DNA from: an uncultured bacterium
GTDB lineage: Bacteria > Chloroflexota > UBA5177 > JANWHV01
Reading direction: 5' to 3'
NCBI GenBank assembly: GCA_963827235.1
Contig: CAWHAE010000012.1
Span: forward strand, 544,001 to 608,000
DNA length: 64,000 nucleotides
In this document: positions 55,527-64,000 of the stretch, piece by piece
How positions within the stretch are numbered: the stretch's first letter is position 1
Layout: every line of letters begins with the position of its first letter
The notes under the pieces: generated by a model
What the model was told of the DNA's origin: nothing
Seen by the model: the letters and a program-made list of their open reading frames with translations, nothing else
Database searches by the model: none
Position numbers and translations under genes: made by a program

Positions 55527-57842
55527 ATGGAGCCCCTTTTCACGGCACTCGCTGGCTTCTGTGTCCGCTTCAAGTACCCGGTGGCAGTGCTCTGGATCGT
55601 CGTGACGATCGCCAGCGTGGCGCTGTGTCCGGGTCTCTCCAGCGTCGCCAAGGATCAAAACAGCAGCTTCCTCCCGTCGAGCGCGCCGAGCATGCAAGCG
55701 GCTGGGCTTGCCTCTCCCTGGCGCGACGTCGACCTCATCACCGGGGCGATCGTCGCCGCTCGCGCCGATGGCATTCTCACGAAATCAGACCAGGCTGCAA
55801 TCGGTCGCCTTGCCGCTGCCATCCGCATGCTGCCTCACGTCAAGACCTTTCAGGATCAAGGCGTGGCGGTAGACGGGAAAGCTCGTCAGTTCAGTATCCA
55901 GGCCGACGTCAACTGGAGCGGCACGGGAACGGCCAAGACGCTCGTGGATACCATCCGTCACGACTTCACCACAGTTGGCGCCCCGCCCGGCCTCGAGATG
56001 CACGTGACCGGCGAGCTGGGCATTCTGGTCGATCAGGCGGTGGCACAGTCGAGCTCGCAGGGCAAGACGACGTATCTCTCCTACCTGTTCATCATCGTGC
56101 TGCTGCTGATCGCTTTCCGCGCCCTGCTTGCGCCGCTCGTCACTCTCCTGCCGGCCGCCCTGGTGCTGGCGCTTTCCGGTCCGGTGATCGCCGCATCCAC
56201 GCACCTGGGCGTGCAGGTGGGCACCATCACCCAGATCATCCTGATCGTGCTTATCCTGGGCGCCGGCACCGACTACGGACTCTTCCTCGTCTTCCGCGTG
56301 CGCGAGGAGCTGCTCCGCGGGCGCACGACCAACGACGCTGTGATCCATTCGCTGACGAACGTTGGCGAGACGATCAGCTTCTCGGCATTCACGGTAATCG
56401 CCGCCATGCTCAGTCTGCTGCTGTCCGAGTTCGGCTTCTACCAGGGGTTGGGACCGGCTCTGGCCATCGGCATCGGCTTGATGCTTCTCGCCGGCCTGAC
56501 CCTGCTGCCAGCCGTCCTCGCCATCTTCGGTCGCGCGGTCTTCTGGCCCTCGAACACGACGGCGAGCGCGGGGGACAAGATCGGCATCTGGGGCGCAACC
56601 GCCGTGCGCGTGGTGCGCCGGCCCGTGGTCACGTTGGTCGCCCTGATCGGGGTATTCGTGCTCCTGGCCTGCGGTCTGATCAACTCCGGTACGACCGGCT
56701 TTGGCGATACCGTGAGCGGGCCGAAAGGCAGCGACTCGGCGGCCGGCCAGGCCCTGATCGCCGTCCACTGGCCGCAGTCGGGGGACAGCATCTACCAGTC
56801 GCTCATTCTCTTCCGCTTCGATCAGCCGGTCTGGAGCCAGCTCGATAAGCTCAACACCATCCAGTCCAACCTGGCGGCCAGCGGTGCCTTCGTCCCGCGC
56901 AGTCTCAGCGGCCCGCTCAACCCGTATGGCGCTCATCTGACCACCGTGCAGCTGGCCGCGCTACACAAGCAGCTCGGTCCGGCGCAAGCCTTGCCGGCGG
57001 TGCAGCCCGCCAGCCTCAAGAAGGTGGCGCCGCTCGCCTACATGGCTTACCGCGCCACGTTCCTTTACATAAGCGCGGACGGCAAGACGGTGCAGTGGAT
57101 CGGCATGACCACGGCCAACAACACTGGCAGCACGCACGATTTGAACCAGATGCCGGTGCTGCGCGATAGCGTCGGCGCGCTTGGGCGGCAAGTGCGGGCC
57201 GCGCAAACCGGCGTCTTCAGCGATATGGCATTCTCGTACGACGTCAGCTCCCTCGCCAACGACGACCTGCACCACATCATTCCTTTCGTGGCGATAGTGA
57301 TTGCCATTCTGCTGGCCATTGTGCTGCGCAGTCTGATGGCGCCGCTTTACCTGGTGGCCAGCGTCGTGCTTTCCTATCTGGCTGCCCTGGGCTTCGCGTC
57401 CTACGTGTTCGTGCACTTCGGTCCCAACTCGGGTCTCAACTTCGTGCTGCCGTTCCTGGTGTTCATCTTCCTCACCGCGCTGGGGTCCGACTACAATATC
57501 CTGGTTATGACCCGCATCCGCGAGGAGGCGAAGAAGCGGCCTCTGCGCCAGGCCGTCTGGTATGCCGTGGGCGTAAGCGGCAGCACGATCACTACGGCGG
57601 GCACTATCCTTGCCGGCACATTCGCCGTGCTCGCCTTTGCTGCCGGCGACCAGAGTGGCGCCGATCAGATGCGCCAGATCGGCTACGGCATCGCCGCCGG
57701 CGTGCTGATGGATACGTTCCTGATCAGGTCGCTGCTCGTGCCCGCCTTCGTGACCTTGCTCGGGCGCTGGAACTGGTGGCCCTCCAAGCTCTTCCGCCAC
57801 CAGATCGATGAGGAGCCGAGCGACGTCGAGGGCGCGGCCTAG
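55527..57842 (+). CDS. MMPL/RND family transporter
   Basis: RBS AGGAGG, GAGTDYGLFLVFR.REE, ALGSDYNILVMTRIREE and LGRWNWWP. Confidence 0.93.
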   Translation: MEPLFTALAGFCVRFKYPVAVLWIVVTIASVALCPGLSSVAKDQNSSFLPSSAPSMQAAGLASPWRDVDLITGAIVAARADGILTKSDQAAIGRLAAAIRMLPHVKTFQDQGVAVDGKARQFSIQADVNWSGTGTAKTLVDTIRHDFTTVGAPPGLEMHVTGELGILVDQAVAQSSSQGKTTYLSYLFIIVLLLIAFRALLAPLVTLLPAALVLALSGPVIAASTHLGVQVGTITQIILIVLILGAGTDYGLFLVFRVREELLRGRTTNDAVIHSLTNVGETISFSAFTVIAAMLSLLLSEFGFYQGLGPALAIGIGLMLLAGLTLLPAVLAIFGRAVFWPSNTTASAGDKIGIWGATAVRVVRRPVVTLVALIGVFVLLACGLINSGTTGFGDTVSGPKGSDSAAGQALIAVHWPQSGDSIYQSLILFRFDQPVWSQLDKLNTIQSNLAASGAFVPRSLSGPLNPYGAHLTTVQLAALHKQLGPAQALPAVQPASLKKVAPLAYMAYRATFLYISADGKTVQWIGMTTANNTGSTHDLNQMPVLRDSVGALGRQVRAAQTGVFSDMAFSYDVSSLANDDLHHIIPFVAIVIAILLAIVLRSLMAPLYLVASVVLSYLAALGFASYVFVHFGPNSGLNFVLPFLVFIFLTALGSDYNILVMTRIREEAKKRPLRQAVWYAVGVSGSTITTAGTILAGTFAVLAFAAGDQSGADQMRQIGYGIAAGVLMDTFLIRSLLVPAFVTLLGRWNWWPSKLFRHQIDEEPSDVEGAA

Positions 57843-58087: not shown

Positions 58088-60709
58088 CTACTTCACAGCC
58101 GCTCCGGCGGTTGCTGCCTCCATCTCGCCGTGCTTGAACACAAGCCGGCCACCCTCCACGTCGACGAGCACCGTGTCGCCTCCGGCGAAGTCGCCGGCGA
58201 GCAAGGCCGAGGCCAGCGGATCCATGATGCGCCGCTGCAGCACCCGCTTGAGAGGACGGGCACCGTACACGGGATCGTAGCCTTCCTCGGCGATCATGTC
58301 CTTAGCTTCCGGCGACAGCTCCAGATCCACATGGCGGTCGGCCAGGCGCCCGCGCAGAGCCCTGAGTTGAATGTCGACGATCTCGCCGATCTGGCCGCGC
58401 GTCAGCGTGGCGAAGGTGACGACGTCGTCCACGCGATTGAGGAACTCCGGTCGGAAGTGTGACCGCAGCGCCTCGTTCACCCGCCGCCGCATCTCTTCCT
58501 GGTCCGACGGTCCCAGCTCGGCGATGTACTGGCTGCCGATGTTGCTCGTCATCACGATGATGGTGTTCGTGAAGTCAACCGTTCTGCCCTGTCCGTCGGT
58601 GAGCCGGCCGTCGTCCAGCACCTGCAGCAGGATGTTGAAGACGTCCGCGTGCGCCTTCTCAATCTCGTCGAGCAGCAACACGCAGTAGGGCCGGCGACGA
58701 ACCGCCTCGGTCAGCTGGCCGCCTTCGTCGTATCCTATGTATCCCGGCGGGGCACCCACCAGGCGGGACACGCTGTGTCGCTCCATGTACTCGCTCATGT
58801 CGAGGCGGATCATGGCGCGCTCGTCGTCGAACAGGAATTCGGCCAGCGCCCGGGCCAGCTCGGTCTTGCCCACGCCGGTCGGTCCGAGGAAAATGAACGA
58901 GCCCAGCGGGCGGTTGGGATCCTGCAGGCCGGCGCGGGCCCGGCGAAGGGCGTTGGCGACGGCGCCGATTGCCTCGTCCTGGCCCACTACCCGGAGATGC
59001 AGGCTCTCTTCCATGCGCAGAAGCTTGCGCATCTCGGCCTCCATTAGCCGGTTGACCGGGATGCCGGTCCAACGGCTGACGACGGTGGCGATGTCCTCTT
59101 CGCCCACTTCCTCTTTCAGCAGACGCCGTTCCCCTTCACCCGCGTCCAGCGCCGCCTGCTTCTCGCGCAGCTCACGCTCGAGGGCCGGGAGGGTGCCGTA
59201 GCGCAGCTCGGCGGCCCGGTTGAGATCGTAGGCGCGCTCGGCCTGCTCCATTTGCAGCTTTGCCGTCTCGATTCTCTCGCGCAGGTTGCGCACCGCGGTG
59301 ATCGCAGCTTTCTCCTGCTGCCATCGCGCCTTCAGCGCTCCGCCTTCTTCGCCCAGCTCGGCGATCTCGGCTTCCAGGCGCTGCAGGCGGTCGCGCGAGC
59401 CGGCATCGGTCTCCTTTTGCAGGGCCTGGCGCTCGACTTCGAGCTGCATGCGCCGCCGTTCAATCTCGTCGAGCTCCGCCGGCATGGAATCTATCTCCAT
59501 GCGCAGGGTGGCCGCGGCCTCGTCGATCAGGTCGATCGCCTTGTCCGGCAGGAACCTATCCGCTATGTAGCGGTTGGAGAGCACGGCGGCGGCCACCAGC
59601 GCCGCGTCCTTGATCTGTACGCCGTGATGGACTTCATAGCGCTCGCGCAGTCCGCGCAGGATGCTGATCGTGTCCTCCACCGTGGGCTCGCTGACCAGCA
59701 CCTGCTGGAACCGGCGCTCCAGGGCGGCATCCTTCTCTATGTTCTTGCGGTATTCGTCCAGCGTGGTGGCGCCTATGCAGTGCAGCTCGCCCCGGGCCAG
59801 CATCGGCTTGAGCAGGTTGCTTGCATCCATGGCGCCTTCGACCTTGCCCGCGCCGACCACGGTATGGATCTCATCGATGAACAGGATGACGCCTCCCGCG
59901 GCCTTCTGCACATCCTGCAGCACCGCCTTGAGCCGTTCCTCGAACTCGCCGCGATACTTGGCGCCGGCGATCAGCGCACCCATGTCGAGGGCGATCAAGC
60001 GCCGGTCTTTCAGGCCCTCGGGCACGTCGCCGCGGACGATGCGAGTGGCCAGCCCTTCGGCGATGGCGGTCTTGCCCACGCCAGGCTCGCCGATCAGCAC
60101 CGGGTTGTTCTTCGTGCGCCTGGAGAGGATCTGCATCACACGCCTGATCTCGTCGTCGCGTCCGATCACGGGATCGAGCTTGCCCGCGCGGGCAAGCTCG
60201 GTGAGGTCGCGCCCGTAGCGCTCGAGGGCCCGGTACGTCTCCTCCGAGCTTGCCGACGTGGCGCGCTTGCCGCCTCGAACGCTCTCCACGGCGGCGCGGA
60301 TGCGACTCGTCTCACCGCCGGCCTGCCGCAGCAGGTCGCCTGCACGGTCGCCGCGCGGCGACGACGCCAGGGCCAGCAGCAGATGTTCGACCGCGAGGTA
60401 GGCGTCACCCATGCCCACTGCTTCTCCGTGAGCGCGCGTCACGGCGCCGCGAAAGCCGGAGGAGTAGCCGATCTGCGCGTCGCCGCCCACGCGCGGCAAC
60501 CTGGCGATCTCCTGGTCGGCGCGTCGCTTTAGCCCTGCCGGCTCGACCTGAGCCTGGCGCAACACCGCCGTGACCAGGCCTTCCGGGTGCGCGAGCATGG
60601 CGCTCAACAGGTGGAGCGTCTCGACCTCCGGATTGCCATTCGCAGTCGCCTGATTCTGAGCATCCAGGATCGCCTCCTGGGCTTTCTCGGTCAACTGGTA
60701 CTCATTCAT
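58088..60709 (-). CDS. clpB: ATP-dependent chaperone ClpB
   Basis: [18 protein letters not shown], long coiled-coil M domain, GPTGVGKT and YGARPLKR. 873 aa. Confidence 0.97.
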
Positions 60710-60815: not shown

Positions 60816-61406
60816 TCAGGCCATGCACAACTCCTCCTGCTGCATCTCGGGTACCGCTGTGTGCAGGAACGTCTCCACGAAGCTGCCGTCCCACTGCTGC
60901 CCGGCGCCTTCCGCGAGCGCTTCGATCGCTGCGCGTACCGGCAACGCGGGGTGAAACGGGCTTTCGTGGGTCAAAGCGTCGAAGCATTCGGCGATGGCGA
61001 TAATCCGCGATCCGAGCGGAATGCGCTCCCCGCACATGTGGCCTGGATAGCCGTCGCCGTCGAAGCGTTCGTGGTGGTGGAGGACGATTTCCGCCGTGCG
61101 CTGAGCCCCGGGTTGCGCGCGCAGATAAGCGGCGCCACGATCCGTGTGATGGCGCACCCAGCTCCACTCCAGCGGCGTGAGGCGGCGAGACCGCACAAGG
61201 GCCGCTTCCGGCACCGCCAGCTTGCCGATATCGTGCAGCCGCGCCGCGTCGAGAATCAGCTGCGCATCCTTCCCCGTCACGCCCAACGCCTTGAGCGTCG
61301 GCGCCACGAGAGCCGCCACGCGCTTACAGTGCCCCGGCATGCCGGAGCGCACGTCGGCGGCATCGGTAAGGCTGCCCAGTACGGTCATCGCAGTCTCTGT
61401 AATCAT
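60816..61406 (-). CDS. Stand-alone HD-GYP domain phosphodiesterase
   Basis: HCKRV, LHDIGK, HHHERFDGDGYP and RIIAIAECFDALT. Alternative start at 61517. Confidence 0.88.
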   Translation of the reverse strand: MITETAMTVLGSLTDAADVRSGMPGHCKRVAALVAPTLKALGVTGKDAQLILDAARLHDIGKLAVPEAALVRSRRLTPLEWSWVRHHTDRGAAYLRAQPGAQRTAEIVLHHHERFDGDGYPGHMCGERIPLGSRIIAIAECFDALTHESPFHPALPVRAAIEALAEGAGQQWDGSFVETFLHTAVPEMQQEELCMA

Positions 61407-61431: not shown

Positions 61432-61836
61432 TCACCGCCGGATCGGAACCGTGCGACTCGCCCTTTCTGCGCCCTGACTCCGGCCGCTCGGCCAGGTTGT
61501 TGCTGAGGTCGATCCATGATGGAGTGCGCCCACGTACTCGCCGCTGCGCCAAGCACAGACGGGGCGTGTGCCGACCAATCGAATGGGCTCCGTGCCCGCT
61601 TCATACTCCGCCGCACCCCAGGAGCCGTCCTGCGGCGGACGCCCGCAGGCGCGACGACTCACGGCGTCCGCGAACTGCTCCAGCGTCTGCGCCTGAATGC
61701 CGACCAGGGATTCGGCGAGCAACTTGTCGTAGCCGGCGTCGATGGCGGCACACCGCGGGTTTGCCAGCAGGCGCCCGGCAAAGGTGCCGTCCACCGAGGC
61801 CTCGGCGAGTAGCCGTTCGTAGGTGCGAAACCGCAC
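61432..61836 (-). CDS. Small NHLP-clan-like (Os1348-like) protein
   Basis: GTG after AGGAG..GGGAG. ERLLAEASVDGTFAGRLLANP..A...GY....L.GIQAQTLEQFA. Confidence 0.65.
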   Translation of the reverse strand: MRFRTYERLLAEASVDGTFAGRLLANPRCAAIDAGYDKLLAESLVGIQAQTLEQFADAVSRRACGRPPQDGSWGAAEYEAGTEPIRLVGTRPVCAWRSGEYVGALHHGSTSATTWPSGRSQGAERASRTVPIRR

Positions 61837-61958
61837 AGCTCCCTGCTCCTATTCCTGACATAACGCGTCGATGGTAGGATATGTATCGTCCCGGTCACGG
61901 CCATCGACGCCGTGTGCACATGGCAACCGCAATGCTCGGCTCTGAGCCTAGGTGGGGG

Positions 61959-62228
61959 CTATGCGTTGAGCGACTCACTATCGGCAGCGGCTACAGGCGC
62001 CTGCTGCGCGAAGGGCTGCGCGCCAAGCCCGTCGGCTAGCAGCGACGTGGCGGCAAACGGCTGCGCGCCGAGACCATCCGCGATCTTCGAAACGTGGGCG
62101 AACGGCTGCGCACCCAGCCCGTCGGCCGTGGAACGGCCCGTGTTGTGCGTGGGTGAGATGCTTGCGGACGATAGCAGGGAACCGGCAACGAGGCTGCTGA
62201 CCGTGATGGCGGCGACAAGCTTGCGCAT
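61959..62228 (-). CDS. Secreted multi-core peptide precursor (3 x ADGLGAQPFA), putative signalling propeptide
   Basis: RBS AAGGAAAGG, Sec-type leader MRKLVAAITVSSLVAGSLLSSASI, and three identical 10-aa cores with synonymous-only divergence. Confidence 0.85.
   Translation of the reverse strand: MRKLVAAITVSSLVAGSLLSSASISPTHNTGRSTADGLGAQPFAHVSKIADGLGAQPFAATSLLADGLGAQPFAQQAPVAAADSESLNA
62007..62126 (-). repeat. Three 30-bp coding repeats at a 45-bp period
   Basis: Copies at 62097-62126, 62052-62081 and 62007-62036. Confidence 0.95.
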
Positions 62229-62372
62229 GGGACTGCCTTTCCTTCGGCTCGATGTGCTCGAGGCCACCTCGAGCTGCCGCCAGACTAGGCTTCGTCCCGT
62301 TCCCACACCGTTCCACGGTTTTTGCCCCCTTGAGCTCGCGGACATCCCTCCGCGCCGCACTGGAGGCTCCTG

Positions 62373-64000
62373 ATGGAGACGCCGGATCTGCTCCCATTCC
62401 CGCTCAGCAAGCTGGCGCCGCCGGTAGCCCGGCGGCCGCCGATCGCGCGACCGCGCCTCTTCGCCCAGCTTGGAAGCGGGAGCCGCCTGCTCCTGGTCAC
62501 CGCTCCTGCCGGGTTCGGCAAGTCGTCCCTACTTGCCTCCTCGATCGCCGAGACCGACCGATCGCCCGACCTCTGGCGGCCTGCGCATGCCGCCGACCAT
62601 CGTTTCGTCTGGTACAGTCTCGACGAGGCCGACGCGGATCCCGGAAGGCTGGTCGACGGCCTGGCTGCGGCCTACGAGCGAGTGGCACCAGGCACAGGCG
62701 GACCGTCCCGGGAGATGCTGGCTGCCGGCGCAAATGTCTATGCCGCTCTGGCCTCGCTAGTGGCGCGGGCCGAGCAGGCTCCCACGACACTGGTCCTGGA
62801 CAATTGCCACAACCTCGAGGGGGCGGGTGAGGCGGAGCGCGCCCTCAGCTACCTGCTCGCGAACTGCCCTTCGGCGCACCGCATCGTGATCGCCGGTCGC
62901 GGTACGCCGGCCACTCCTGTTGTTGCCGCCCTGGCAGCCGGCGCCGTGCGCTCCCTTGGCCCGGACGATTTGCAGTTCGGCGACGACGAAGCGGCTGCGC
63001 TGGCCGCGTTGTACGGCGTGTCCGAGGACCGGGCTGCCGCCGTGGTGCAGCCGGCGGCAGGTTGGGCCATCGGCATTGTGCTGCTGGCACATGCCGGCGG
63101 TCGGGATGCCGCCATCCTGCAGCGCCCGATTGACGCGCTGGCCGACTACTTGATGAGCGAGATCGTCGACCGGCTGCCCGAGGCGTCACGCAGGTTCGTT
63201 CTGGAGAGCGCGCTGCTCGGAACATTCGATGCTGCGGCAGCCGACGCGATCCTGGAGCGCACGGACAGCGCACTCGTGATCGACGGCCTCCTCCGACGTG
63301 GCATCTTTCTGGACTGCTTCCCTTCGCAGGACGGATTCCTCACCCGCTATCACGATCTGTTTGCCGCAGCCATGGCCGGCCGCTTGCAGCGCCAGGAGCC
63401 CCGGCGATGCCGCGAGATTCACCGCCGTGCCTCCGACTACTATGCGGACGATCCTCATCGGGCCCTGGCACACGGCGCGCGCATGCACGACCCGGACTAC
63501 CTGGCGCAGCAGCTCGATCGCTACCTGCCCATGCTGCGCCGGGCCGGGCACTGGGAAGCTCTGGTCCGCTACGGGGAACAGCTCCCGGTCCGATTGCAGT
63601 CCCTGTTTCTCCAACGCGTGCTGTCGTTCGCTCATTACACTCGCGGCGACGATCGGGCCGCGCTGGCAGCTGCCGACCGCGTGTACGAGGCCGCGGTGGC
63701 CCAGGGAGATCGGGAAGCACGCTACTCGGCCCTCGTGTTGCGGGCGAACACGCACTTCAGACAGGAACGGTATGCCGAGCTCCTGCAGTACTGCCTACCT
63801 GCCCTCAGCGAGGCGCGCGCGGCCGGCTTTGCGCTGGGCGAATGCTGGCTGGCATGGAACGTTTCCAAGGCGCTCCTGCGTGAGGGCCGTGTGCGGGAAG
63901 GCCTGGCCATGGTGAGCCGCACGCTCGAGCTGTATCGCTCGCTACCCGGGCCATCGACACCGCTCTCCATGGCCTTCTACGAGCAGGACGTTGTCCCGAT
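62373..64000 (+). CDS. MalT-like STAND ATPase/TPR transcriptional regulator (3' part outside window)
   Basis: RBS GGAGG. SKLAPP...IARPRL, APAGFGKS, WYSLDEADADP, LVLDNCH, AGW, DYL..EI, RYHDLF, then helical repeats. The frame is open to the window edge. Confidence 0.9.
   Translation, partial: METPDLLPFPLSKLAPPVARRPPIARPRLFAQLGSGSRLLLVTAPAGFGKSSLLASSIAETDRSPDLWRPAHAADHRFVWYSLDEADADPGRLVDGLAAAYERVAPGTGGPSREMLAAGANVYAALASLVARAEQAPTTLVLDNCHNLEGAGEAERALSYLLANCPSAHRIVIAGRGTPATPVVAALAAGAVRSLGPDDLQFGDDEAAALAALYGVSEDRAAAVVQPAAGWAIGIVLLAHAGGRDAAILQRPIDALADYLMSEIVDRLPEASRRFVLESALLGTFDAAAADAILERTDSALVIDGLLRRGIFLDCFPSQDGFLTRYHDLFAAAMAGRLQRQEPRRCREIHRRASDYYADDPHRALAHGARMHDPDYLAQQLDRYLPMLRRAGHWEALVRYGEQLPVRLQSLFLQRVLSFAHYTRGDDRAALAAADRVYEAAVAQGDREARYSALVLRANTHFRQERYAELLQYCLPALSEARAAGFALGECWLAWNVSKALLREGRVREGLAMVSRTLELYRSLPGPSTPLSMAFYEQDVVP

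Follow-up and report, generated by a model that had tools for sequence, protein, structure and literature searches.

According to the available part of PMC10075063, signaling by genetically encoded peptides with an intracellular receptor has been described almost exclusively in the Bacillota and their mobile elements. The same text characterizes these RRNPPA systems by a propeptide of 10 to 100 aa that is secreted through Sec and encoded beside a receptor of 250 to 500 aa, which is made of peptide-binding TPRs, is related to Rap, NprR, PlcR, PrgX or AimR and binds the mature peptide after its re-import. A single RRNPPA propeptide can carry several identical or near-identical copies of the pheromone, as documented in the accessible portions of two further reports (PMC9765709; PMC11343458). 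For SARP regulators, the available sections of PMC10936776 describe promoters in which direct repeats are spaced by 11 or 22 bp and the one on the 3' side lies 8 bp from the −10 element.

The literature that we searched contained no Chloroflexota peptide-pheromone system of this kind and did not link NHLP-like proteins to HD-GYP or STAND-SARP regulators. To our knowledge, no known ligand of a SARP or of MalT is a ribosomal peptide, and our literature search for such a ligand found none. In the DSF-RpfG system of Xanthomonas, a fatty-acid signal acts through two-component sensing and an HD-GYP phosphodiesterase.

Here we analyze a 64,000-nucleotide stretch of DNA from an uncultured Chloroflexota bacterium (the window), in which a gene for a small repeat peptide lies divergently to a gene for a large STAND regulator.

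RESULTS

A multi-core precursor under purifying selection at the peptide level

The preliminary description of this DNA had proposed an 89-aa precursor with three ADGLGAQPF(A) units, and we found the ORF exactly as quoted, on the minus strand (Table 1). The cores recur with a 45-nt period. It had further been claimed that 8 of the 10 core codons vary and that all of the variation is synonymous; this was borne out, with codons 1 to 5 and 8 to 10 variable (CTG/CTC/CTT and GGG/GGT among the alternatives) and codons 6 and 7 constant. Across the 9-codon core, which has 7.3 synonymous and 19.7 non-synonymous sites, we counted no fewer than 8 changes that are synonymous and none that is non-synonymous, and the chance that randomly placed changes would all be synonymous is ~3e-5 under a simple site-count model without mutation bias. 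The DNA copies are 72 to 88% alike, whereas the peptide copies are identical. On the antisense strand the repeats read (K/N)GCAP(S/R)PSA, with non-synonymous differences, so that the minus frame is the selected one; the antisense ORF at 61912..62373 was rejected on the same ground.

Table 1. Features of the precursor locus, in window coordinates
Feature	Position	Strand	Remarks
HD-GYP domain protein, c-di-GMP phosphodiesterase type	60816..61406	−	HD_5, E 2.9e-31
Os1348/NHLP-clan small protein	61432..61836	−	First ~70 residues conserved
Precursor gene, 89 aa	61959..62228	−	ATG at 62228, TAG stop at 61959-61961; signal-peptide-like N terminus, three copies of ADGLGAQPF, dispensable tail
Core copy 3, ADGLGAQPF	62010..62036	−	
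Core copy 2, ADGLGAQPF	62055..62081	−	
Core copy 1, ADGLGAQPF	62100..62126	−	
Approximate signal peptide	62154..62228	−	Residues 1 to about 25, judged by eye
Shine-Dalgarno-like stretch AAGGAAAGG	62236..62244	−	7 nt before ATG
Putative −10-like hexamer TAGTCT	62282..62287	−	7 bp after 3' repeat
Two 11-bp direct repeats, GTGGAACGGTG and TGGGAACGGGA	62295..62316	−	Putative SARP operator
Regulator, N-terminal 542 of 1070 aa	62373..64000	+	Continues 1585 nt beyond window end

The GC content of the precursor by codon position is 0.68/0.57/0.78, the third position being the highest, as in ClpB (0.85). The ortholog from the same genus (G002) has AGGAGG at a similar distance from its start. By inspection, the putative signal peptide comprises an MRK n-region, about 16 hydrophobic residues and a c-region of small residues (SSASIS); the paralogous precursors have clearer (A/V)HA sites, which directly abut the first core in two cases. 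Orthologs and relatives of the precursor begin in common with MRK(L/F)(V/I)A, and the start, the Shine-Dalgarno stretch and the signal-peptide-like region are kept in 12 proteins. A lipoprotein reading was rejected by eye: no Cys is conserved within the hydrophobic stretch, and the window precursor has none. Searches of Pfam and NCBIfam gave no credible family for 11 precursors, the ESM Atlas returned just sub-threshold, unnamed clusters (score, 0.81), and Rfam gave a sub-threshold sRNA match only. The ORF is confirmed as a real multi-core precursor under purifying selection at the peptide level.

Core copies change together in relatives

The G002 ortholog carries three copies of ADGSGTQPF, and metagenome relatives carry ADGIGVQPY, ADGGTQPF or AEGGGVQPF; ADTVGNNPL and ADGSGPIPQPP are further variants. 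Core identity averages 0.97 within proteins (31 pairs) versus 0.62 between proteins (434 pairs). The earlier proposal that the peptide, not the DNA, is what is conserved thus extends beyond the window: the copies change together between relatives, and variation among copies is entirely synonymous in 6 of 10 multi-core relatives (synonymous/non-synonymous counts, 8/0 in the window, 7/0 in the G002 ortholog, 6/0 in G004, 8/0 in G058, 9/0 in L060 and 4/0 in L062). Non-synonymous copy differences occur in three multi-core relatives (4/3, 2/2 and 7/2), and the sum over the 10 multi-core genes with DNA is 64/8.

The number of cores ranges from one to seven among relatives. Spacers had been described as unrelated in sequence and constant in length; HVSKI and ATSLL indeed share one of five residues and have the same length here, but spacers in the family range from 0 to 10 aa, even inside one protein, and in L060 three core units abut. 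Spacers are alike by position across relatives, the second, for example, ending in LL. In a second Chloroflexota family (f26) a single core stands at the C terminus in 4 of 6 loci, and the tail after the last core is missing from the G002 ortholog. The core units behave as independent modules.

Of the alanines said to flank each core, the N-terminal one stands, but the tenth residue varies in relatives (A/S/P/V/G/H/Q), so we take the conserved unit to be the 9-mer ADGLGAQPF; the product is probably (A)DGLGAQPF, without the trailing Ala. The core flanks consist merely of an aliphatic residue before Ala-Asp and a small residue after Pro-Phe, and comparison of the variant precursors revealed no dibasic site or other cleavage motif at the cores. 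Cores are Gly/Pro rich, and their last two residues are Pro-Phe, Pro-Leu or Pro-Tyr; the variant core types have no fixed chemistry of Cys, Ser, Thr or Lys in common.

These relatives came from several searches. Scanning metagenomes with alignment A2 yielded 3 loci, and a scan of genome contigs found only a G002-like record. The ADG-type profile A4 matched only G000 and G002 among 401 Chloroflexota genomes, three other matches (E about 7e-4) inside frames of 695 to 1268 aa being set aside. From 21 protein matches, 9 long proteins were left out and 12 were examined, of which 9 were accepted by their signal-peptide and repeat layout; P0015, P0019 and P0020 look unrelated. Contigs of equal length suggest that P0030 lies with P0004 and P0023 with P0006.

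The precursor belongs to a conserved cassette

The precursor is part of a cassette made up of the divergent regulator, the precursor, an Os1348/NHLP-like small protein and an HD-GYP phosphodiesterase, and the host genome has three paralogous cassettes. A small, putatively secreted ORF lies upstream at all 10 of the strong NHLP-like loci of the genus, and a divergent TPR-containing regulator lies at all 9 loci that could be assessed. The pair of precursor and NHLP-like gene recurs at 3/3 metagenome loci and at 6/6 loci of the second family. Full-length regulators with these domains in this order number exactly three in the host genome, one beside each cassette. In the window, 144 nt separate the 89-aa ORF from the start of the divergent regulator, so that the ORF has the size and the position directly beside a receptor gene that are expected of an RRNPPA propeptide. 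A hairpin that separates the precursor from the NHLP-like gene is unexceptional (z −1.25). The cassette encodes no transporter or protease, an absence that weighs against the signaling model discussed below; the 32 SBP_bac_5 matches in the host genome make peptide uptake possible, in a permissive sense only.

The window NHLP-like protein matches PF14407 (E 1.1e-5) and NF038399 (E 2.8e-6; 27.3 bits), both below cut-off, and its paralog on contig C16 scores 42 bits with NF038399 against a cut-off of 40. The leader_NHLP model TIGR03793 gave 18.3 bits versus a cut-off of 50.9, with one paralog. The protein is also similar to the N terminus of nitrile hydratase alpha (E 1.4e-5) and to the 85-aa chain 6lk7 (E 6.3e-5). 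The C terminus of most NHLP-like proteins is AVAG, RLAG or VAGS; among 11 that were aligned, 7 end at AG and one at AGS, the exceptions being the window copy, the G002 ortholog and G058, and none has a core peptide after the AG or Gly-Gly-type motif. The window copy has a 62-codon tail that is non-conserved and not coding-like (GC by codon position, 0.63/0.71/0.67), and no frameshift into the other frames restores an AVAG-type C terminus. This linked gene has no role in the signaling model, and its one studied relative sits in a bacteriocin-like cluster, according to the available part of PMC7726476; both points count against that model.

The HD-GYP protein contains the motif HHHERFDGDGYP; its probable start, the ATG at 61406, was assigned by reference to the G002 ortholog. 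The ORFs that we scanned, which reach to 16 kb beyond the cassette and include the two genes that precede it, contained no radical SAM, YcaO, LanM, ATP-grasp, GNAT, HEXXH or SagB gene. Nor is any maturation enzyme common to the three paralogous cassettes, an absence that favors the signaling model. The host genome, which is 95.9% complete, has no match to Peptidase_C39 or mod_HExxH, and its one SagB-type gene (C16:231640) is about 400 kb from the nearest cassette.

The divergent gene encodes a STAND-TPR-SARP regulator

The full-length regulator sequence was taken from L018. Its domains run in the order NOD (residues 12 to 393), TPR (about 400 to 830) and a C-terminal SARP winged helix-turn-helix plus BTAD (about 830 to 1057). 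Pfam matches were to AAA_16, TPR_MalT and BTAD (E 2.1e-11), and the match to Trans_reg_C was weak (E 0.19 for the window regulator and 6.7e-4 for the C10 paralog). Its relatives in the PDB are the MalT NOD (1.9e-62), the AfsR TPR (1.6e-24) and the AfsR SARP (5.2e-14); profile positions 828 to 1043 match the AfsR SARP and 813 to 1043 match EmbR. The regulator thus has the OmpR-type winged helix and the BTAD that define a SARP domain. It joins a TPR domain of the peptide-binding type to a SARP DNA-binding domain, which favors a signaling role. Against such a role is that MalT and other STAND regulators respond to small molecules.

As an RRNPPA receptor the protein does not qualify, being 1070 aa long versus 250 to 500 aa and having MalT and AfsR as its best solved relatives; matches to RRNPPA receptors were of the generic TPR kind only (NprR, E 0.0059; RapJ, E 0.0069). 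Compared with P0004, identity was 0.65 in the NOD, 0.65 in the TPR and 0.73 in the SARP domain, and so no TPR-specific acceleration was seen between these regulators, which probably pair with different peptides. Two ortholog pairs showed no more than modest dips. The lack of such acceleration, the generic nature of the RRNPPA likeness and the three relatives with non-synonymous copies all speak against the signaling model.

We rejected a reading of the locus as an Avs-like anti-phage STAND system: PADLOC had no match for the regulator, the NHLP-like protein or the precursor, and gave only weak, generic Cas3 HD-domain matches for the HD protein.

The upstream region contains a candidate SARP operator

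The direct repeats are the sole conserved island in an upstream region that has otherwise diverged between the window and G002. GGAACG repeats stand 11 bp apart in both, and G002 has the −10-like hexamer TATTGT at the same 7-bp distance. The full TGGAACG-N4-GGGAACG arrangement occurs once in the 7.98-Mb genome. Repeat and hexamer match the layout of a SARP operator and are a candidate for one. A scan for promoters and terminators of the E. coli-type consensus returned 0 sites.

DISCUSSION

We suggest, with a confidence just short of even, that the ORF encodes the multi-copy propeptide of a peptide signal that is sensed by the adjacent regulator. The propeptide would be exported via Sec and its signal peptide removed. 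Extracellular proteases would then act at two places around each core, behind the aliphatic residue that precedes Ala-Asp and behind Pro-Phe, and so free three copies of the nonapeptide (A)DGLGAQPF. This peptide would act as a cell-to-cell signal that is imported by one of many oligopeptide transporters and binds the divergent STAND regulator at its TPR sensor. The SARP domain of the regulator would bind the 11-bp direct repeats by the −10 element and activate an operon of the precursor, the Os1348/NHLP-like protein and the HD-GYP gene, the outcome being autoinduction, with c-di-GMP breakdown as output.

Phr/PapR-style signaling had already been suggested for the cores. Context makes that idea more plausible because a TPR regulator adjoins every assessable cassette and the promoter has a SARP-type repeat, and because multi-copy propeptides are documented in RRNPPA systems (available parts of PMC9765709 and PMC11343458); the receptor, on the other hand, would not be an RRNPPA protein.

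Two alternatives appear unlikely, and a third much more so. Several RiPP classes typically have multi-core precursors, and the cores, or the Os1348/NHLP-like partner, might be modified by enzymes encoded elsewhere to give an antibiotic or another bioactive peptide, with the SARP-type protein as a cluster-situated activator of the sort found in actinomycete secondary metabolism. The partner does belong to the NHLP clan and Os1348 family, and the AVAG, RLAG or VAGS ends of most such proteins resemble a leader cut site. Os1348 is itself tied to antibiotic activity within a bacteriocin-like cluster (available part of PMC7726476), and SARPs are classically activators of antibiotic clusters (available sections of PMC10936776). 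We nevertheless consider this RiPP-like scheme improbable. The scanned ORFs include no modifying enzyme, the three paralogous cassettes have none in common, and the 95.9%-complete genome is without a match to mod_HExxH or to a Peptidase_C39 exporter, its lone SagB-type gene being far away. A Sec-type signal peptide is unusual for RiPPs modified in the cytoplasm, the variant cores lack a common Cys, Ser, Thr or Lys chemistry, and no core follows the AG of the NHLP-like proteins.

We hold it equally doubtful that the product is an unprocessed secreted repeat protein, its Gly/Pro-rich units forming a multivalent ligand, a decoy or an envelope-associated protein in which each unit binds the same partner. 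Conservation of the repeats as peptides would suit such a protein, as would the lack of a nearby protease gene and of a dibasic-type cleavage motif. Spacers of 0 to 10 aa within one protein, one to seven copies among close relatives and single-core members that end right at the core argue against a periodic fold or a required valency. The protein has, moreover, no anchor, no Cys and no known domain, and the G002 ortholog dispenses with the tail. That the ORF is a chance, non-translated frame whose repeat is a DNA-level tandem repeat is scarcely credible: spurious ORFs are common in GC-rich genomes (7 kb of this DNA has 59 that reach 40 aa or more) and the 45-nt tandem repeat is detectable at the DNA level, but the peptides are identical where the DNA copies are not, the frame-specific synonymous pattern recurs in independent relatives, 12 proteins share the start, the Shine-Dalgarno stretch and the signal-peptide-like region, and GC3 is highest in this frame.

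Returning to the signaling model, the locus may represent a new family of peptide quorum-sensing systems outside the Bacillota, in which a Sec-exported Chloroflexota propeptide would carry one to seven copies of a Gly/Pro-rich pheromone of 8 to 11 residues that diversifies by lineage, the copies of one precursor changing in concert, and a STAND-TPR-SARP receptor would sense it and autoinduce the operon. This is a tentative proposal, to which we give a chance clearly below even. If it is true, peptide quorum sensing would reach a large, mostly uncultured soil and sediment phylum, and STAND/SARP activators, few of whose natural ligands are known, would prove to respond to a ribosomal peptide. 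For the Os1348/NHLP-like small proteins it would mean a first functional context outside RiPP clusters, and the three cassettes of one genome would constitute natural, non-cross-talking peptide-regulator-operator triplets. The cores are short, predicted to be unmodified and easily synthesized, which makes the hypothesis testable without culturing the organism.

The window locus resembles the RRNPPA systems of Bacillota and phages (Rap-Phr, NprR-NprX, PlcR-PapR and AimR-AimP) in that the gene for a putatively secreted propeptide adjoins that for a cytoplasmic TPR-containing regulator, the predicted product is of pheromone size and the peptide variants diversify between relatives. It differs from them in its phylum, the Chloroflexota, in its Gly/Pro-rich cores, in its putative receptor, a 1070-aa STAND protein with a MalT-like NOD, an AfsR-like TPR and a C-terminal SARP domain, and in having an Os1348/NHLP-like gene, and usually an HD-GYP gene, as extra obligate partners. 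With the large SARPs of the AfsR type and with MalT, the regulator shares homologous domains (the NOD with MalT, the TPR and SARP with AfsR), and the locus has target-like direct repeats 11 bp apart by a −10-like element, as described for SARPs. Unlike AfsR, in which the order is SARP-NOD-TPR, the window regulator is arranged NOD-TPR-SARP, and unlike the AfsR-type proteins or MalT it is paired with a gene for a putatively secreted peptide. Its NHLP-like partner is, like Os1348 of Pseudomonas sp. Os17, of the NF038399/6lk7 kind and of similar length (about 84 aa). The Os1348 cluster contains GNAT, HEXXH-peptidase-like and SagB-type genes, according to the available part of PMC7726476, whereas the window neighbors are the repeat peptide, the HD-GYP protein and the STAND regulator.

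Like the fungal repeat precursors of the Kex2/alpha-factor type, in which a signal peptide is followed by several short cores (PMC7329392, available part), the window precursor would supply several peptides from one chain, but its host is bacterial, it has no dibasic sites and no dedicated enzyme, and it is linked to a cytoplasmic regulator. Finally, as in DSF-RpfG, a cell-cell signal would be coupled to c-di-GMP turnover by an HD-GYP protein; here, however, the HD-GYP gene would be a transcriptional target and not a response regulator.

Identical cores are maintained at the level of the peptide

The precursor begins with MRK, followed by about 16 hydrophobic residues, a small-residue stretch and three ADGLGAQPFA units that recur with a period of 15 aa (45 nt); signal peptides were assessed by eye. 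A Shine-Dalgarno-like stretch lies ahead of its ATG, and its GC content peaks at codon position 3 (0.78, compared with 0.85 for ClpB). Codon comparison bore out the preliminary description of an 89-aa ORF with three identical cores, in that 8 of the 10 unit codons vary among the copies and every difference is synonymous. Within the 9-codon core there are at least 8 synonymous changes and no nonsynonymous ones, over 7.3 synonymous and 19.7 nonsynonymous sites, and under a simple model that ignores mutation bias, the probability that randomly placed changes would all be synonymous is ~3e-5. In the antisense frame, the copies differ in amino acids. The gene is real, and the peptide is the level at which selection acts.

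Locations of the precursor, neighboring genes and related cassettes
Feature	Location	Strand	Description
Precursor ORF	window 61959..62228	minus	89 aa; ORF reading
MMPL-family transporter	window 55527-57842	+	E 9.7e-92; one side of the cassette
ClpB	window 58088-60709	minus	Same side of the cassette as MMPL
Paralogous cassette C16	G000:C16:635937-639146 (L020)		Precursor with 7x SAGGA(N/S)GGPL, 15-aa period; ~1060-aa regulator, NHLP-like protein, HD-GYP protein
Paralogous cassette C10	G000:C10:959000-967000 (L058)		Single Gly/Pro-rich GGGAGSPPIF-like unit; ~1060-aa regulator, NHLP-like protein, HD-GYP protein
Receiver-domain cassette	L053 2559-3098 (G003:C160) and orthologous L054 (G004:C267)		Response_reg E 6.4e-23, stand-alone (scanned in L053 only)

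A word-indexed search returned one relative, P0002, with 75% identity and the same three cores. When all 1.84 billion representatives were scanned with an HMM, 21 matched at E <= 1e-3; 12 of these were fetched and 9 accepted as family, all from metagenome sources and annotated as unnamed or "hypothetical." Their cores, several of them variants, are ADGLGAQPF (x3 and x2), ADGIGVQPY x3, ADGGTQPF x3, AEGGGVQPF x2, ADGSGTQPF with ADGSGTLPL, ADSGGTTPL with ADGAGTGPL, ADGSGPIPQPP x4 and ADTVGNNPL x4-5. A same-genus ortholog (genome G002) keeps the gene order and carries three ADGSGTQPF cores, so that Leu has become Ser and Ala has become Thr in every copy, while the copies differ among themselves synonymously only (7 changes to 0). 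This co-change of copies agrees with the earlier claim that the peptide rather than the DNA is conserved. Cores of one protein had a mean identity of 0.97 (31 pairs), and cores of different proteins had 0.62 (434 pairs), with P0002 left out as redundant with P0008. Among the copies in 10 multicore genes with DNA, we counted 64 synonymous and 8 nonsynonymous changes, and six of these genes had no nonsynonymous change at all.

The ends of the core are nearly constant (initial Ala-Asp, final Pro plus Phe, Tyr or Leu) and the middle is variable. An aliphatic residue precedes each Ala-Asp, some first copies excepted. Because the residue following the core varies (A/S/V/G/P/H/Q), the conserved unit is a 9-mer and not the 10-mer originally described, although the repetition itself is real. 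Likewise, the spacers of the window precursor are dissimilar (one of five residues in common) and constant at 5 aa, but across the family their length ranges from 0 to 10 aa. One 178-aa protein, P0015, carries MDTLGTQPF four times, in a repeat of 17 aa, and lacks a signal peptide; it matched the profile via its TQPF motif and looks unrelated.

A conserved four-gene cassette

Two genes lie downstream of the precursor on the same strand. The first ~70 residues of the nearer product resemble the NHLP clan (PF14407, E 1.1e-5; NF038399, E 2.8e-6), both under the cut-off in the window copy, and it also resembles a stand-alone 85-aa chain, 6lk7 (E 6.3e-5). Most relatives end ~84 aa in; of 11 aligned partners, 7 end at AG and 1 at AGS. 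The window ORF runs on for 62 codons (61432-61620, minus strand), a tail conserved in no relative and without coding-like GC3 (0.63/0.71/0.67 by codon position), which may reflect a lost stop codon or read-through; a check of its other frames found no better one. Within the 122 nt that separate the precursor from this gene lies a 10-bp inverted repeat, GCGTCGATGG / CCATCGACGC (61865-61874 and 61901-61910), that could form a transcript-processing or attenuation hairpin; the whole gap folded no better than shuffles (z -1.25). The second product is an HD-GYP protein that matches HD_5 (E 2.9e-31) and has the HHExxDGxGYP motif.

The 1070-aa regulator starts divergently 144 nt upstream of the precursor. 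Its profile positions 12-393 resemble the MalT NOD (E 1.9e-62), its TPR region resembles AfsR (E 1.6e-24), and its last ~215 positions resemble the SARP domain (winged helix plus BTAD) of AfsR and EmbR (5.2e-14; BTAD Pfam 2.1e-11).

Searching the host genome, a MAG-like assembly whose contamination is estimated at 9% and in which the window cassette sits on a 1.63-Mb contig, with the NHLP-like protein revealed two more cassettes of the same four genes. In C10, the unit comes directly after a signal-peptidase-like VHA site. Full-length regulators of NOD-TPR-SARP architecture number exactly three in this genome, each adjoining one cassette; they are only 27-28% identical to one another, so the paralogy of the cassettes is old. 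Across 5 genomes of the genus, a small secreted Gly/Pro-rich ORF lies directly upstream of each of the 10 strong NHLP-like loci (E <= 4e-14), with cores such as 5x ASGITSGPL-like, 3x ASGNTSGGPL, 4x SVNTGSGPL, 2x GGVPAxxGPL or a single IQPGPL, and the divergent regulator is present at 9 of 9 loci with enough flanking DNA. HD-GYP assignments were Pfam tested in three cassettes, the remaining ones being alike by eye; one cassette type, whose precursor has a single IQPGPL-type core, encodes a receiver-domain protein instead. Three metagenome loci keep the cassette order, with cores 4x TVVGPGPL (three abutting, with zero spacer) and 2x TIVGPDPL. Genomes G018 and G055, flagged as unpublished, figure in the tallies solely among those lacking a credible match, and none of the conclusions depends on them.

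A second Chloroflexota family, f26, has a precursor-type ORF upstream at 6 of 6 NHLP-like loci. In four, a single core stands at the extreme C terminus; a fifth carries 3x SASGGPGTV, and the sixth is a frameshifted form of the fifth. At this last type of locus (L044, G264:C7), ~700 nt upstream of the NHLP-like match, one DSASGGPGTV unit is followed in another frame by two more and a stop, which points to a frameshift in the assembly or to a broken gene. In another f26 cassette (L048, 294-1250; G058:C1), an S33-type alpha/beta hydrolase (Hydrolase_4, E 5.8e-54) replaces HD-GYP after the NHLP-like gene, and a BTAD-ending regulator lies upstream on the same strand, not divergently. With the filter used, 19 NHLP-like loci fetched from other families of the phylum gave no convincing precursor; one is a true nitrile hydratase. 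Two further ~72-aa NHLP-like subfamilies (L028, L030, L033-L036, L038, L041 and L046; L031, L032, L039 and L043; mostly family f13) occur widely in another Chloroflexota family, in 18 of 25 genomes and frequently with two in one genome, and none was found to have a secreted peptide gene next to it. The precursors described here form a real, previously unannotated family of secreted multicopy peptide precursors in a conserved Chloroflexota cassette of regulator, precursor, NHLP-like and HD-GYP genes.

The precursor promoter

The regions upstream of the window and G002 precursors have diverged save for one island, in which GGAACG occurs twice, 11 bp apart, 7 bp ahead of a -10-like hexamer (TAGTCT in the window, TATTGT in G002). 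SARPs are described as targeting direct repeats with a spacing of 11 or 22 bp, the 3' copy lying 8 bp from the -10 element (PMC10936776), and judged from its sequence, the precursor promoter has a putative SARP-type layout. The 7.98-Mb genome contains the full repeat motif once and a looser version 3 times (1.8 expected for the latter). Other cassette types have different repeats (GTCACAG, CCCAAC) at 10-11-bp spacing, single 6-mer repeats alone being not significant.

Processing and function of the precursor

A RiPP-like origin of the product seems unlikely to us, yet it gains some ground from a partner that the signaling model below leaves without a role: the NHLP-like gene is linked to the precursor as tightly as the regulator is, its C16 paralog passes NF038399 (42 bits against a cut-off of 40), and partners stopping at AG resemble a leader with nothing past the cut site. 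The one studied member of the partner's family (Os1348) is an 85-aa dimeric protein linked to antibiotic activity, and its cluster holds GNAT, HEXXH and SagB-type genes (PMC7726476). Against this reading, the ORFs scanned, which extended up to 16 kb beyond the window cassette and included the two genes before it (ClpB and MMPL), yielded no RiPP-type enzyme or transporter, and the three paralogous cassettes have nothing in common beyond the four genes. Downstream of the window cassette are lectin/hydrolase-like, GDSL, ABC, NMT1 and AIR-synthase-like genes; MMPL and ClpB are probably unrelated to it because the paralogous cassettes do not share them. Peptidase_C39 and mod_HExxH had zero matches in the 95.9%-complete genome, and its one SagB-type gene lies ~400 kb from the nearest cassette. 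PADLOC and Rfam gave no matches of note.

That the precursor stays whole, as a multivalent repeat protein, is also improbable in our view. We favor a cut propeptide because identical cores drift freely at synonymous sites and co-change between lineages, because copy number (1-7) and spacer length vary, and because single-core members carry the core C-terminally and the cores of two paralogs abut a signal-peptidase-like site. A chance ORF is scarcely credible beside the synonymous pattern.

We tentatively propose, as a possibility, that the precursor is the secreted multicopy propeptide of a peptide signal sensed by the adjoining regulator, inferring secretion, cleavage, uptake, binding and autoinduction alike. 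After secretion, the propeptide would be cleaved into short peptides of identical sequence that fit one specific partner, which may be the TPR domain of the peptide gene's constant companion, the regulator. The SARP domain, acting at the conserved repeat, would then activate the peptide operon itself, and the HD-GYP gene might provide c-di-GMP turnover as output. With Pro at P2 and Phe, Leu or Tyr at P1, the core ends suit proteases of the subtilisin or chymotrypsin type, the kind responsible for Phr maturation in Bacillus. Chloroflexota are usually regarded as monoderm, so a Sec-exported peptide could reach the medium, and 32 oligopeptide-type binding-protein matches in the host genome make uptake possible. 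We found no TPR-specific acceleration among regulators probably paired with different peptides, the pairing of P0004 with the ADGIGVQPY precursor being presumed from contigs of equal length.

Propeptides with several pheromone copies are known from RRNPPA systems (PMC9765709), and PMC11343458 concerns the extracellular processing of such propeptides. The suggested likeness to Phr/PapR signaling holds in part: by analogy, the cassette, with its ever-adjoining regulator, would work most like peptide quorum-sensing modules, but it falls outside the RRNPPA family.
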